DNA of 64,000 bases from assembly GCF_054482595.1 (NCBI RefSeq), contig NZ_CM137008.1. The stretch is one strand, 5' to 3'. The notes under the pieces are model-generated. The model was not told the origin of the DNA and did not search any database. It saw only the letters and a list, made by a program, of their open reading frames with translations. Below, one piece after another: positions 6,533-13,849 of the stretch (positions are counted from its first letter, which is position 1; every line of letters begins with the position of its first letter). A program made the position numbers and the translations under genes.

Positions 6533-7141
6533 ATGAAAATCAGGCTACTGATCCTCAGCCTGCTGGTTTCTGTGCCTGCCTTTGCCTGGCAGCCGCAAAC
6601 TGGCGACATCATCTTTCAAATCTCTCGCTCATCGCAAAGTAAAGCGATCCAACTGGCGACCCATTCCGATTACAGCCACACCGGTATGCTGGTGATGCGT
6701 AACAAAAAGCCCTACGTTTTTGAAGCGGTCGGCCCGGTGAAATACACCCCGCTCAAGCAGTGGATTGCCCATGGTGAAAAGGGCAAATACGTTGTTCGCC
6801 GCGTTGAAGGCGGACTGAGTGTTGAACAACAGCAAAAACTGGCGCAAACGGCGAAACGTTATCTCGGCAAACCGTACGATTTCAGCTTCTCATGGAGCGA
6901 CGATCGCCAGTACTGTTCGGAAGTGGTGTGGAAGGTTTATCAGAATGCGCTGGGAATGCGCGTGGGCGAACAGCAGAAGTTGAAAGAGTTTGATCTCAGC
7001 AACCCGCTGGTCCAGGCGAAGCTCAAAGAACGCTACGGCAAAAATATTCCGCTTGAGGAAACGGTAGTTTCACCACAAGCCGTTTTCGACGCGCCACAAC
7101 TCACCACGGTCGCCAAAGAATGGCCGCTGTTTTCGTGGTAA
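6533..7141 (+). CDS. yiiX: YiiX family protein (permuted papain-fold/NlpC-P60-like putative lipid-binding hydrolase) with signal peptide
   Basis: 202-aa ORF MKIRLLILSLLVSVPAFAWQPQTGDIIFQISRSSQSKAIQLATHSDYSHTGMLV..., recognised as YiiX. Confidence 0.9.
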   Translation: MKIRLLILSLLVSVPAFAWQPQTGDIIFQISRSSQSKAIQLATHSDYSHTGMLVMRNKKPYVFEAVGPVKYTPLKQWIAHGEKGKYVVRRVEGGLSVEQQQKLAQTAKRYLGKPYDFSFSWSDDRQYCSEVVWKVYQNALGMRVGEQQKLKEFDLSNPLVQAKLKERYGKNIPLEETVVSPQAVFDAPQLTTVAKEWPLFSW

Positions 7142-7285
7142 TGGATGATAAAAAAAATAATTCCCGCCGTAGTCTGTTTGTTGCTTTGTAGTTGCACGAC
7201 CTTTCCGCAAGCTGTCGCTCCGGTAAACGGTGATGCCTCCAATTAGTTGAATTAAGGATATAATACTCGCTTTTAAGGTTGTTTC

Positions 7286-7558
7286 ATGGTCACAGTTAAC
7301 CTTCATTGTCCCCGTTGCCAGTCCGTTCAGGTTTACCGTCACGGGCAGAACCCCAAAAGACATGATCGATTCCGCGGCCGTGACTGTCACCGGGTATTTC
7401 AGCTCAGTTACTGTTACGAGCCCCGTAAACCGGGAGTTAAAGACCAAATCGCTGAAATGGCTTTCAACGGTGCCGGGGTTCGCTATACTGCCCGTACGCT
7501 GAAAATCGGCATTAATACAGTCATCCGAACTTTAAAAAACTCTCGCCACGAAGAATAA
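7286..7558 (+). CDS. insA: IS1 InsA-like protein (zinc-finger/HTH)
   Basis: 90-aa ORF MVTVNLHCPRCQSVQVYRHGQ...NGAGVRYTARTLKIGINTVIRTLKNSRHEE; CxxC...CxxC layout and C-terminal LKNS tail as in IS1 InsA, but strongly diverged. Confidence 0.8.
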   Translation: MVTVNLHCPRCQSVQVYRHGQNPKRHDRFRGRDCHRVFQLSYCYEPRKPGVKDQIAEMAFNGAGVRYTARTLKIGINTVIRTLKNSRHEE

Positions 7559-7990
7559 CGTCATCCCCGGTCGCTCATGCTGATGTGGCACTCATCTGCG
7601 AACTTAGTCAGCAATGGAGCTTTGTCGGCAGTAAAGCGCGACAGCACTGGCTCTGGTACGTGTACAACACGAAAACTGGTGGTGTTCTGGCCTACACTTT
7701 TGGCCCCCGGACTGATGAAACCTGTCGTGAATTGCTGGCGCTGCTTACCCTTTTACCATCGGCATGTTGACCACTGACGAATGGGGTAGTTACGCTAGAG
7801 AGTTACCAAAGGAGAAGCATCTGACTGGTAAGATTTTTACTCAGCACATTGAGCGTAACAATCTGACCCTGAGAACCCGAATCAAACGTCTGGCCCGCAA
7901 AACCATCTGTTTCTCGAGTTCTGTAGAACTTCATGAAAAAGTCATCGGTGCTTTTATCGAAAATATATGTTCTACTAATTGGAGTCATCA
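7540..7990 (+). pseudogene. insB: IS1 insB-like transposase region carrying an extra frameshift
   Basis: InsB-like similarity (QQWSFVGSKARQHWLWYVYN...) continues in one frame to a stop near 7770, then resumes in another frame (YPFTIGMLTTDEWGSYAREL...HEKVIGAF). Confidence 0.6.
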
Positions 7991-8047
7991 CCCTTCTGAT
8001 GAGCTTTCCTTGGATGATTACCAGACTGAATACACAGCCAAAGATTT

Positions 8048-8371
8048 TTACCTCATTCTGCTCTTTTTTCTCAAATGACATATATTATATTTTACATCAT
8101 ATTCATAGGCATATGACATTCCCCCGCCCCCCATTATGTCATTGTGGGTTGATGTTGGGCTTTCATAAAAAAATACATCTTTTTTTGAACTAGCATTAAT
8201 TATATTTACTTTATATATTAAAATATTTTCTCCATCTGGAAATATTTTAGCCACACAATATAAAGCAGCTAAATCCGAATTACTTAAAAATACATTGTCA
8301 TCACTCATAACTCCAGCCATTAAATGACTGGAGACTAAAGCAAGGAAATAACAACATTGTATTGCCTTCAT
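8048..8371 (-). CDS. Putative immunity protein for the adjacent Rhs C-terminal toxin; hydrophobic N-terminus
   Basis: ATG at 8371 lies 1 nt after the toxin stop (8373-8375) with GGGAG 8 nt upstream; product MKAIQCCYFLALVSSHLMAGV... about 107 aa; AT-rich. Confidence 0.65.
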   Translation of the reverse strand: MKAIQCCYFLALVSSHLMAGVMSDDNVFLSNSDLAALYCVAKIFPDGENILIYKVNIINASSKKDVFFYESPTSTHNDIMGGGGMSYAYEYDVKYNICHLRKKSRMR

Positions 8372-8372
8372 T

Positions 8373-9410
8373 TTAATTACTCCCTTGCCTGATAATTGTA
8401 ACTCCATTCCCTTTAGCTTTGGGATTATATTTTAGATAGGTGTTATTTGGTGTTCCCAAGTAACTACTGTATTCTTTTTTTCCCATTCCATTCATATAAG
8501 AATTCGTTAAATCTTTGCTTGAAAAATTTAGACTATCATAAACATCATTTTCTTTTGTTACTTTATTTCCTTTATCGTCAGAGTAAAAACCGTGAGTGTG
8601 ATAATCGCCTACTCTCTCTGAACCTTCAGGGCATTTTATATTTCGCAAGTCTACACTATCATTATCATTTGAACTTATCGGATTCATGGGAAAATATTCA
8701 CCTTGCTTCTTACATATTAGTCCACCATATTCTTTAATCTCGTTAATTGATTCTCCATTACACATTGCCAATGCAAATATTCCAATATCATCTATATTTT
8801 TTGATTTAAATTCATATAATCCCAATGGATCCATGCCATTCACCGGGCTCAGCGGATATGTATACAGGTTCCATCCCCCCTTCAGCCCAATCGGATCCTG
8901 AGTGATATACCGCCCCTGCAGCGGGTCATAATAGCGGTGGCGGTTGTAATACAGGCCGGACTCCTCATCATACTGCTGACCCGGCAGGCGGATGAGCTGC
9001 TGCAGCTGGTGCGGGTTCTCTTCATTCAGCAGGTTGCCCCATTCATCGTATTCTGCGCACCATTCTGTAGCCCCTTCCGTGCTGATAAGCGCCAGCGGCA
9101 GGCCGCGATGGTCGCAGTGGTACAGGTGGATTTTTCGCGCCGGCGTGTACACCGGGTCCATCTGGTTTTGCATCTGCTCCACCGTCAGGCCGCACGATGC
9201 CAGCCAGCGGCGACTTTCCTCACTCACCCGGTCAGCCAGGATTTCACTTTCCAGCCGGTCGAGCATCTGCACCAGCACCGGCGGGAACACCACACTGCCA
9301 CCGTCTTCGCCGCCGGACTGCTGAAGCGCATCCGCCAGGCTGCGGCGCTGCGTTTTCGCCAGCTCACCGGTGGCGGTTTCAACCCTGATGAGTGGCGTGA
9401 AGCCAGGGCA
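8373..9410 (-). CDS. Orphan Rhs core-end plus C-terminal toxin domain (5'-truncated, no native start)
   Basis: Frame is open from the H-repeat junction (about 9410): [32 protein letters not shown]...[17 protein letters not shown]...[10 protein letters not shown] followed by a 147-aa AT-rich variable domain (about 8373-8816). Confidence 0.8.
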
Positions 9411-10653
9411 AGATTACGAAAGCCCGCTCCCCGCAAGGACTGACGCCAGATAGTTTCTGTCCATGGCTGCTTTTCGCATCTTACGTCTTAACCCTGCCTT
9501 GAATACCTTATCATTCGTCAAAATATTAATAGCAATGTGCCGTATCCCTGAAAATAATTCTGCTGCATTTCCTCTTCTTATTTTGCAGTCGTCTTCATTC
9601 ATTACCACGTCCAGACGCCAGTGCAGCTTATTCTCCACGTGCCAGTGATTTCGGATCGCTGTGGCGAATTTCTCAGCGGTTAAATCAGCAGAACTGATAT
9701 AATATCTGACCGTCATTTCTGGCTCTTTCTTTTGCTCTGCTATTATGGACCGAAAGGAGACTGCCACGCATAATTTCTTCAGCCCTTTCCATTCAAACGT
9801 GAAATCAATAAGTTCATCAGGGACATCGCAAACAATATGAAGACGGATTTCTTCTCTGCCGTGACTCTTTTCACTAATTGCGTAACTGTCATGCTCTGGA
9901 TTATTTAATTCTTTCAGCGGAAATTTTTCCTCAAAGGCTTTATTAAGCCGCCCCTGGTTACCTTTTACCGCGAATAAATAATCACCGCCCTGTTTTTGTA
10001 TCTTCTCTGCGATATCTTTCTGGCAACCCATCGCATCAGTTGTGATAATTTTCCCTTTAATATCCAGCATGTTAAGAAGTTCAGGGATAGCTGTAATCTC
10101 ATTAGATTTCTCATCCGTCTTGATCTGTCCGATGACCAGACTGTGCATTGTTGAGAACGCACTAATGACATGAATCGCTCCCCTGCGGCGACTCTTGTCA
10201 TAAGAATGCCGGAGCGTTTTTCCATCAATTGCAATGACGTCTTTATCATCTGAAGAATGACAATCACGCATCCAGTTAATAAAGCACTCATGAAATTTTG
10301 TAGGGCTGATACAGGATACAACTCTGGCAATGGTATCGTGAACAGGAATACCATTTTCAAAATCACCATATTGCTTCAAAAAATCGAGATGTGTTTCCCC
10401 AAAATCCTCTATATCTTCCCAACCTTCTGCACCCGAAATAACGGCACAAATAGTCAACAGTAGAATATCTGATAATTTATGTTCCACTTTCTAGGCTTGT
10501 CTGTAATCGGGGATAATAGAAATATGTTCCATCAATTTTTTAAGTTCCATTTTGTTCTCCTTAATTATACAAGGAGTATTTGATCATGTATAAGCAATAA
10601 AAGACAGCTTTAGGTAATGAGGAATATCTCAATTTTTAAACATAAAATGCGAA
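9411..10653 (-). mobile_element. H-repeat (ISAs1-family) element inserted within the Rhs remnant; boundaries approximate
   Basis: Contains the ISAs1/H-rpt transposase reading frame; flanked by the Rhs N-terminal fragment on one side and the Rhs core-end on the other. Confidence 0.6.
9414..10550 (-). pseudogene. ISAs1-family (H-repeat-associated, YhhI-like) transposase with in-frame amber stop at codon 20
   Basis: ATG at 10550 reads MELKKLMEHISIIPDYRQA then TAG (10493-10491), continuing in frame as [37 protein letters not shown]... (357-aa ORF from GTG at 10487). Confidence 0.75.
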
Positions 10654-11076
10654 TTATTTAGTACAAAAAGTGTACTTCTGATGATCTTTCCCTGGAAACA
10701 GGTGCTCAAAATACAGGCTTCTGCCGCCGTTATCACTGAGTATCAGTGTGTTATCGCGCAGCTGTAAGCGGATATCCGCAGGCATTTTCCAGCCGGGGCC
10801 GAGGCTCCCCACCGGCGCGGGCGTTTTTGTCCGATAACTGCTGTAGGTGCGGGAGAGAATGAACGGCAGCGGGGCGGGCAGGGCGATGTCGGTTTCACCG
10901 GGAAGGACCTTTGCACCCAGCAGCGGATTGACCGGATGGCCGGACGTCACCCCGCCGGGGCACACCGAACAGGCCACGCCGGTGGGGGCACCGATGCGCA
11001 CCCCGGCTGAACCCTGGACAATGCTACCGCCATACTGCGTCATGTCGCCCTGACGCGCCGCCGGTTTTCCGCTCAT
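10654..11076 (-). pseudogene. Rhs N-terminal fragment (PAAR domain) truncated after about 125 aa of Rhs sequence
   Basis: MSGKPAARQGDMTQYGGSIVQGSAGVRIGAPTGVACSVCPGG...LRDNTLILSDNGGRSLYFEHL is the typical Rhs N-terminus; unrelated tail FPGKDHQKYTFCTK then stop. Confidence 0.8.
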
Positions 11077-11193
11077 CGTAAAATCCTTTTGAAATAAATA
11101 AGAACCAGAAGCCTAGCGCCAGTCAACAACAGGAAATGATAATGAGTTAACACCCCGGAATTTTTCAGAATTTATAAAAGGCAAATTACAGGC

Positions 11194-11223
11194 ACAAAAA
11201 AAGCGCCGTGCGGCGCTTTTTTC
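11194..11223. terminator. Bidirectional rho-independent terminator downstream of rpmE
   Basis: aaaaaaa GCGCCG tg CGGCGC tttttt: GC stem with A-run on one side and T-run on the other. Confidence 0.7.
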
Positions 11224-11235
11224 GGAAATCCGGTC

Positions 11236-11487
<252 letters not shown>

Positions 11488-11491
11488 CTAA

Positions 11492-13849
<2,358 letters not shown>

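Follow-up and report, generated by a model that had tools for sequence, protein, structure and literature searches.

A Tox-JAB-2/DUF4329 toxin domain and its putative immunity gene at the end of an IS-interrupted rhs gene of Escherichia coli

The DNA considered here, referred to as the window, is a stretch of 64,000 nucleotides from NCBI RefSeq assembly GCF_054482595.1 (contig NZ_CM137008.1), and its source is Escherichia coli. Between yiiX and rpmE it carries an rhs gene broken at an insertion sequence (IS), whose C-terminal toxin domain, or tip, is followed by a small putative immunity gene, dsORF-f3. The tip is a member of the Tox-JAB-2/DUF4329 family with a predicted JAMM/MPN fold, and dsORF-f3 belongs to a widespread family, mostly with signal peptides, that has no Pfam entry. 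The features run in the order metB, metJ, yiiX, IS1, dsORF-f3, rhs 3' fragment, ISEc1, rhs 5' fragment, rpmE and priA, with the toxin, dsORF-f3, the rhs fragments and ISEc1 all on the minus strand. They are given below with the basis of each assignment in brackets.

7286..7978, plus strand: coding sequence of the IS1 transposase (frameshifted insAB), beside dsORF-f3 (annotation).
8048..8371, minus strand: dsORF-f3, putative immunity gene, 107 residues plus stop (open reading frame, sequence, RefSeq name 'RHS element protein dsORF-f3').
8373..8816, minus strand: Rhs C-terminal toxin domain Tox-JAB-2/DUF4329, 147 residues plus stop (motif E29, H73-T-H75, S99, D102; Ile in place of Asn27).
8380..8384, minus strand: Shine-Dalgarno sequence GGGAG of dsORF-f3, 8 nucleotides upstream of the ATG, within the last toxin codons (sequence).
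8817..8897, minus strand: DPxG-(18)-DPxG motif at the boundary of core and toxin (sequence; TIGR03696 match).
8817..9403, minus strand: rhs core 3' fragment of about 195 codons, 587 bp (blastn, alignment, NF041261 RHS_core positions 1104-1261).
9404..10693, minus strand: ISEc1, an ISAs1-family H-repeat element, with its transposase frame at 9414-10550 (blastn breakpoints; RefSeq annotation of the identical XH990 locus).
10694..11076, minus strand: rhs 5' fragment, the start codon and about 127 codons of the PAAR-like/DUF6531 region (blastn; annotated 'DUF6531 domain-containing protein, missing C-terminus').

The open reading frame (ORF) at 8373..9293 on the minus strand encodes 306 residues when counted from its first GTG. 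Its Rhs core ends in DPIGL-(17 residues)-DPLGL, and the 147-residue tip begins at residue 160 (Y), whose codon starts at 8816, and runs to the toxin stop codon at 8375-8373. The DPxG-(18)-DPxG pair is the autoproteolysis motif of the Rhs C terminus. The core is recognized by TIGR03696 Rhs_assc_core (83.8 bits, cutoff 32.5), by NF041261 RHS_core at model positions 1104-1261 (E 1.2e-94) and by Pfam RHS PF03527 (E 4.9e-15). The G+C content falls from 0.60-0.65 in the rhs core to 0.29-0.34 over 8048-8816, a drop typical of variable Rhs tips. The ATG of dsORF-f3 (8371-8369) lies one base past the toxin stop, and its 107 codons end with a stop at 8050-8048. An initial annotation, made from the sequence alone, had described this tip, its boundary and a downstream ORF one nucleotide away with its own Shine-Dalgarno sequence and a hydrophobic N terminus. 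All of this is borne out (GGGAG at 8384-8380), and so is its reading of the pair as an Rhs C-terminal toxin with a translationally coupled immunity gene downstream.

The locus is not confined to this assembly. A megablast search with 8000-9450 finds loci that are 100% identical, for example in strain XH990, where RefSeq uses the names 'RHS element protein dsORF-f3' and 'ISAs1-like element ISEc1 family transposase', and in each of the four related genomes with inspected annotation IS1 lies at the identical position. The toxin/immunity feature is already known and annotated. The window copy itself is of limited importance, being identical to annotated RefSeq loci, part of a broken gene and a member of a family named since 2012.

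The intact rhs allele of O157:H7 strain 8368 (locus L003) occupies the same chromosomal site with the same flanking IS1, and its toxin and immunity DNA is 99.3% identical to that of the window. In a blastn comparison of the two, window 7001-9403 corresponds to L003 8815-6414 (98.8%) and window 10694-11600 to L003 3642-2736 (98.9%). The O157:H7 gene is intact and its dsORF-f3 is frameshifted, whereas in the window ISEc1 takes the exact place of 2771 bp absent from the rhs core and the tip has Ile instead of Asn at position 27 (N27I). Since ISEc1 replaces these 2771 bp, PAAR region, shell and toxin no longer form a single protein: the first 127 or so and the last 342 or so codons survive, and no continuous PAAR-shell-toxin ORF is found. 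The 3' frame is open to the end of ISEc1 at about 9404-9407, and its native start is absent (RefSeq: 'missing N-terminus'). Both flanks are collinear with the intact gene, which identifies the remnant as the product of an internal deletion in the locus's own main gene. ISEc1 junctions of this kind are rare, with the 3' junction in 53 and the 5' junction in 24 of 5426 complete E. coli genomes, and in the window the main rhs gene of the locus is thus an IS-associated, lineage-specific wreck. The ISEc1 copy in the window may itself be defective; in the identical RefSeq locus the transposase frame (9414-10550, minus strand) is annotated with a stop inside it, and the list of ORFs gives it 357 residues from a GTG. 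A second, independent ISEc1 junction in this rhs gene occurs in another strain, where an E. coli protein of 257 residues (P0003) joins the N terminus of the ISEc1 transposase, in frame, to the rhs core and continues into the same toxin tip.

The tip matches Pfam DUF4329 (PF14220) with E 6.7e-14 over ORF residues 173-293 and model positions 6-108 of 116. This E-value, together with the presence of the pair at no less than 95% identity in 2169 genomes, means that the pattern is not due to chance. In the numbering used here, which counts from the first residue of the 147-residue tip, E29, H73-T74-H75, S99 and D102 are invariant in all 50 aligned sequences, the window copy included. The tip is predicted with high confidence to adopt the JAMM/MPN (deaminase-like/JAB) fold, and the top structural matches of its model are isopeptidases, not nucleases. 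DUF4329 was catalogued as Tox-JAB-2 by Zhang et al. 2012 (Biol Direct 7:18; PMC3482391), who described a deaminase-like/JAB fold with conserved E, H[ST]H, S and D, fusion to RHS repeats, export by several routes including type VI secretion (T6SS) and a partner called 'Imm-NTF2 family 2'. In the profile match, the motif, the fold, the Rhs fusion and the link to T6SS, the window tip agrees with this family; it is a member of Tox-JAB-2/DUF4329 and, on its model, a predicted JAMM/MPN-fold zinc hydrolase. The initial annotation could name no toxin family, which was mistaken, and RefSeq (PGAP) names the partner as well; the HxH element that it took for a sign of metal dependence is part of the predicted metal-hydrolase (JAMM) motif. 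It had also said that a confident match to a characterized toxin family would tell against its view; the match is to a family that is named and for which no biochemical characterization was found.

Although the tip shares its fold and the order of its key residues with the JAMM/MPN+ isopeptidases (Rpn11, BRCC36, AMSH, archaeal JAMM1, bacterial Cap3 and BilC), it is not a canonical JAMM protein, and the likeness goes no further. The canonical motif, E-x(n)-H-x-H-x(7)-S-x(2)-D, has 7 residues between the second His and the Ser, whereas 23 separate H75 from S99, and neither JAB nor Prok-JAB matches the tip in a Pfam scan. We know of no ubiquitin-like substrate in the target compartment. The groove that holds the ubiquitin tail is not conserved in Tox-JAB-2 (Zhang et al. 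2012; PMC3482391). Tox-JAB-1, found in Rhs toxins of Bacteroidetes, is a sister family with the JAB fold, and its partner Imm65 is exported, with a signal peptide and a lipobox; it is, however, a separate sequence family with an NxxxE motif, and Imm65 is unrelated to the immunity family described here. When PDB sequences were searched with profiles of the toxin and immunity alignments, no relative of either family with a solved structure came up. A profile search with the toxin found 241 relatives, including small PAAR-DUF4329 proteins encoded beside VgrG, and this adjacency ties the family to T6SS.

Two features set the window copy or its clade apart from the rest of the family. Codon 27 of the tip (8736-8738, minus strand) is ATT for Ile, where intact E. 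coli alleles have AAT for Asn. This Asn, part of an N-x-E-Y-G-G element and two residues before the catalytic Glu, is kept in all 49 other aligned family members and in 38 of the 42 aligned toxin ORFs of fetched loci, two of the remaining four having a gap in that column. Judged from this conservation, N27I is probably inactivating, and it fits relaxed selection because the toxin gene is already broken. The ISEc1 break and Ile27 together make the toxin a decaying remnant beside an intact immunity gene. The second feature is a pair of cysteines, Cys35 and Cys62, which occur together in 10 of the 50 family sequences and are jointly absent from the other 40. This covariation suggests a disulfide specific to the enteric clade. 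The Cys residues that had looked conserved in the initial annotation do covary; they are a clade-specific pair and not a catalytic feature of the whole family.

The partner protein begins with a hydrophobic N terminus resembling a Sec signal peptide (MKAIQCCYFLALVSSHLMAG), followed by a mature domain of about 85 residues with a conserved GGGG loop and a C-terminal Arg. It has no match in Pfam (E<=10), NCBIfam or PHROG, and no publication behind the name 'dsORF-f3' was found in the literature. A search with the single sequence returns E. coli relatives only. ORFs starting within about 35 bases of the toxin stop in Enterobacter (toxin 71% identical) and Salmonella (53-58%) are, however, clearly related to dsORF-f3, and a profile built from four such partner proteins gives 39 matches among 1.84 billion representatives, the full-length ones being 100-112 residues long with a textbook Sec signal peptide at the start. 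A genome scan with the toxin alignment adds 31 further loci from many phyla. For both families, single-sequence word-indexed protein searches reached enteric relatives only, and it was the exhaustive profile search and the genome scan that revealed their breadth. Among 40 distinct toxin loci, a hidden Markov model (HMM) of the dsORF-f3 family matches the ORF just downstream of the toxin in 19 (E 4e-35 to 3e-4), or in 21 if two weaker matches (E 2e-3 and 5e-3) are included. These loci include Janthinobacterium, Undibacterium (twice), Breznakiella, Aestuariibacter, Pseudoalteromonas and Luteibacter, and the family ranges over Proteobacteria and, at weaker HMM scores, Spirochaetota, Planctomycetota and Acidobacteriota. 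The two ORFs therefore occur together well beyond vertically inherited E. coli copies, which strongly confirms the co-occurrence that the initial annotation had asked for, and dsORF-f3 is a member of a widespread family without a Pfam entry whose genes directly follow those of DUF4329 toxins in many phyla. This family, broad, absent from Pfam and mostly exported, is the point that goes beyond the existing literature.

Almost all of the downstream ORFs share one pattern, as judged by eye from 36 sequences: an A..A..F helix, two strands, an R-G-(G/S)-G loop and two further strands, with Arg or Lys at the very C terminus in 34 of the 36. The loop and the terminal Arg/Lys recall the ...RGG tail that JAMM isopeptidases recognize. 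In several non-enteric loci (L011 3245-3855, L013 3274-3870, L021, L024 and L027) the partner is a tandem duplication of the dsORF-f3-like domain with about 180-200 residues, and the duplicated partner of L011 has a lipobox-like N terminus, LALCVGC. The dsORF-f3 model (predicted local distance difference test score, pLDDT, 85.5) has an alpha plus four-stranded-sheet fold. Its structural neighbours are cystatin-like domains of amine oxidases, the PepSY domain of YpeB (6.1), NTF2-like proteins (about 5), cystatins, metalloprotease propeptides, fetuin-B and latexin, while the good matches in AFDB50 are solely uncharacterized members of its own family. Imm-NTF2-2 (PF15631), listed as the Tox-JAB-2 immunity protein and as 'E. 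coli only' (PMC3482391), is likewise a small alpha+beta protein directly downstream of Tox-JAB-2, and the predicted fold of dsORF-f3 has NTF2-like neighbours. It differs in that PF15631 matches neither dsORF-f3 nor its 36 relatives, for which the Pfam scan gave chance-level matches only and none to Imm-NTF2-2 at E<=0.1; of the Tyr and Trp conserved in Imm-NTF2-2, dsORF-f3 has no Trp (a Tyr is conserved), and its family extends beyond E. coli.

Within E. coli the pair is very common. The toxin tip and dsORF-f3 (769 bp, identity of at least 95%) are present in 2169 of 5426 complete genomes (about 40%), O157:H7 included, always on the chromosome in one to three copies per genome and nearly always with the dsORF-f3 partner. 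Of 40 records sampled evenly, about three quarters place the tip under a full-length annotation, 'RHS element core protein' or 'rhsC'. The intact genes of O157:H7 strain 8368 (1394 codons) and AR_0015 (about 1390) sit at the same site, next to the same IS1, as the remnant in the window; in most carrier strains the tip ends an intact PAAR-Rhs protein of about 1390 residues. In O157:H7 strain 8368, where rhs (1394 residues) is intact, the frameshift in dsORF-f3 (L003 7446-7768) is the loss of one A from a run of seven, which could be a slippage-prone tract; the toxin of that strain seems to be left with no functional partner. In AR_0015 (L004) the tip is joined to a different core end, NFYQYPLNPISNIDPLGL, from about 45 bp upstream of the DPLGL codons; this switch is a recombination breakpoint at the boundary between core and tip, as read from the sequence. 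In GF43 (L002 9049-17877) the same locus has an intact Rhs protein of 1409 residues, which has another tip and a partner with Sel1 repeats, followed in turn by an rhs fragment, an ISAs1 element, a fragment linked to ybfB and, as a distal orphan, the toxin/immunity module.

The N termini of the partner proteins bear on where the toxin would act. A signal peptide was called where an uncharged 10-residue window with a mean hydropathy of at least 1.6 starts within the first 14 residues. By this rule 34 of 42 immunity-family members (about 80%), dsORF-f3 included, have a signal-peptide-like N terminus; one of them, L041, is a probable false positive, and a count by eye is nearer 33. The envelope-associated immunity protein proposed in the initial annotation is thus well supported, the signal peptide being a family-wide feature. 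A toxin with the Cys pair is followed by a signal-peptide-bearing ORF at 8 of 9 loci, the exception being L007, where the toxin is truncated and the immunity ORF is shorter at its N terminus. The converse idea, that the signal peptide is exclusive to partners of the Cys35/Cys62 clade, was rejected, because exported partners also accompany many toxins that have no Cys pair. An immunity protein is normally found at the place where its toxin acts. Given an exported immunity protein and a covarying Cys pair, the target most likely lies in the periplasm or the envelope, and we infer from these sequence features that at least the enteric clade acts there and that a peptidase or amidase activity would be more likely than the RNase (ribonuclease) label. 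By analogy, the Tae/Tsi amidases also combine a T6SS-delivered hydrolase with a signal-peptide-bearing immunity protein; their folds are unrelated, and a cell-wall substrate for Tox-JAB-2 is a hypothesis. In the literature, the Imm65 partner of Tox-JAB-1, the sister family, is a lipoprotein, and the Tox-JAB-2 forms found in phages and NCLDV (giant viruses) are secreted (PMC3482391).

These observations are probably best explained as a whole by the IS-broken tail of an rhs gene that carries a Tox-JAB-2 tip and dsORF-f3, with an envelope-acting zinc hydrolase as the toxin and the locus now kept for immunity. Once in the target cell, the toxin would be a zinc-dependent hydrolase acting, most likely, in the periplasm or the envelope on a substrate of the peptidase or amidase kind. 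The immunity protein, with its small cystatin/PepSY/NTF2-like fold, would probably block the active site, perhaps by means of the RGG(G) loop, which is conserved and flexible. For this strain the locus would most likely amount to the immunity gene only, against an intact toxin in about 40% of E. coli, and the most economical reading is that the strain retains a functional immunity gene, which has its own Shine-Dalgarno sequence, as protection from a toxin widespread in E. coli. The locus is thus a clean example of a strain losing the weapon and keeping the shield. A broader proposal for the family as a whole is tentative, and we would put it forward with some doubt: Tox-JAB-2 toxins may be envelope-acting JAMM hydrolases, not nucleases but periplasmic zinc peptidases or amidases, held in check by a widespread, uncatalogued family of exported cystatin/PepSY-like inhibitors. 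Possible substrates would be the amide bonds of peptidoglycan stem peptides or cross-links, or the isopeptide link between Lpp and peptidoglycan, and the flexible RGG(G) loop of the inhibitor, its C-terminal Arg/Lys or both might enter the JAMM groove as a pseudo-substrate. If action in the periplasm is true, the current annotation is overturned, a JAMM-fold enzyme joins the envelope-targeting T6SS effectors, and a new mechanistic class of cell-envelope-targeting Rhs/T6SS effectors results. A literature search for JAMM-type T6SS effectors returned no relevant paper.

Several points weigh against an envelope-acting toxin. Eight of the 42 immunity homologues have no signal peptide, nor can their frames be lengthened at the upstream end; part of the family is therefore cytoplasmic, at odds with a target that lies purely in the periplasm. 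Signal peptides were assigned with a simple heuristic and visual inspection instead of SignalP, and that of E. coli dsORF-f3 is among the weaker ones, with a best 10-residue hydropathy of 2.11. Tox-JAB-2 has a similarity to RadC. The frameshifted dsORF-f3 beside an intact rhs gene in O157:H7 would be odd if the toxin were active and delivered between sister cells. The literature that mentions DUF4329 or Tox-JAB-2 yielded no experimental report on any Tox-JAB-2 toxin, and what is said here of toxicity, metal dependence, substrate and the role in immunity is inference throughout.

The rival explanation that survives best is that Tox-JAB-2/DUF4329 is a nuclease acting in the cytoplasm, usually written as an 'RNase', with an activity like that proposed for RadC, and that dsORF-f3 neutralizes it by direct binding. 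This is unlikely, since about 80% of the cognate immunity proteins have Sec signal peptides, whereas an immunity protein normally sits at the site of its toxin, and since the best structural matches of the tip are isopeptidases and not nucleases. Genome surveys do call DUF4329 an 'RNase', citing Ma et al. 2017, but the label, however often repeated, traces to prediction only. Nuclease activity was merely suggested for Tox-JAB-2 by analogy with RadC (PMC3482391). A review names only Rhs-CT1, CT3 and CT5 as tested by Ma et al. 2017 and calls CT5-CT8 'putative' RNases, the CT number of Tox-JAB-2 not being established here, and a 2024 preprint calls the activity and substrate of Rhs-Tox-JAB-2 'still unknown'.

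The initial annotation suggested a different history, in which the fragment may be a silent orphan cassette kept in reserve. Its 587 bp of core homology would then allow it to recombine onto a full-length rhs gene elsewhere and give the cell a new toxin tip. Such re-arming by orphans has reportedly been seen in Salmonella, in work attributed to Koskiniemi et al. in 2014. The fragment does have the start-less core, tip and immunity gene of an orphan cassette, its core aligns at 97% with other rhs cores (L002 alignment), in GF43 the module is found as a distal orphan behind an intact rhs gene that has another tip, and the AR_0015 allele has its recombination breakpoint just upstream of DPLGL. 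At the window locus, however, no intact rhs gene lies upstream, the piece found there being the 5' end of the same gene, and with both flanks collinear the fragment arose by an ISEc1-associated internal deletion of the main gene. A copy re-armed with N27I at an invariant position may, moreover, be inactive. An origin as a reserve cassette is improbable here.

It is very unlikely that the fragment is expressed alone, from an internal promoter or by read-through from ISEc1, as an intracellular toxin-antitoxin-like pair, for although in-frame GTG and ATG codons are present at 9293 and downstream, and internal promoters upstream of the autoprotease site transcribe the tip and immunity gene of two other rhs loci of enterohaemorrhagic E. 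coli (EHEC) independently of T6SS (PMC7618764, 2025), those loci differ and their toxin has a restriction-endonuclease-like fold, promoter-like sites around the fragment are no commoner than in shuffled sequence (4 found against 4.0 expected), and an exported immunity protein could not neutralize a cytoplasmic toxin. As the promoter and terminator scans are both at chance level, they carry no information on expression. The toxin 'RhsFI' of the same paper (2025, Nucleic Acids Research) was considered as evidence on the toxin of the window and set aside, since it belongs to a different EHEC locus (ECs0604, S-loop 44) and is restriction-endonuclease-like; because loci and toxin fold differ, the paper is a precedent for internal promoters only.

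Two database records concern the pair itself. A 2.2-kb contig labelled as a metagenome-assembled genome (MAG) of a Lachnospiraceae bacterium (L015, SFGN01000258.1) is 99% identical to the E. coli tip and dsORF-f3; the most likely explanation is that E. coli DNA was mis-binned into a MAG of Firmicutes. A Salmonella enterica entry in AFDB (A0A603L4H5, 367 residues, 'DUF4329 domain-containing protein') matches the immunity-like fold over part of its length, which suggests a toxin-immunity read-through or a fusion call in some Salmonella genomes.

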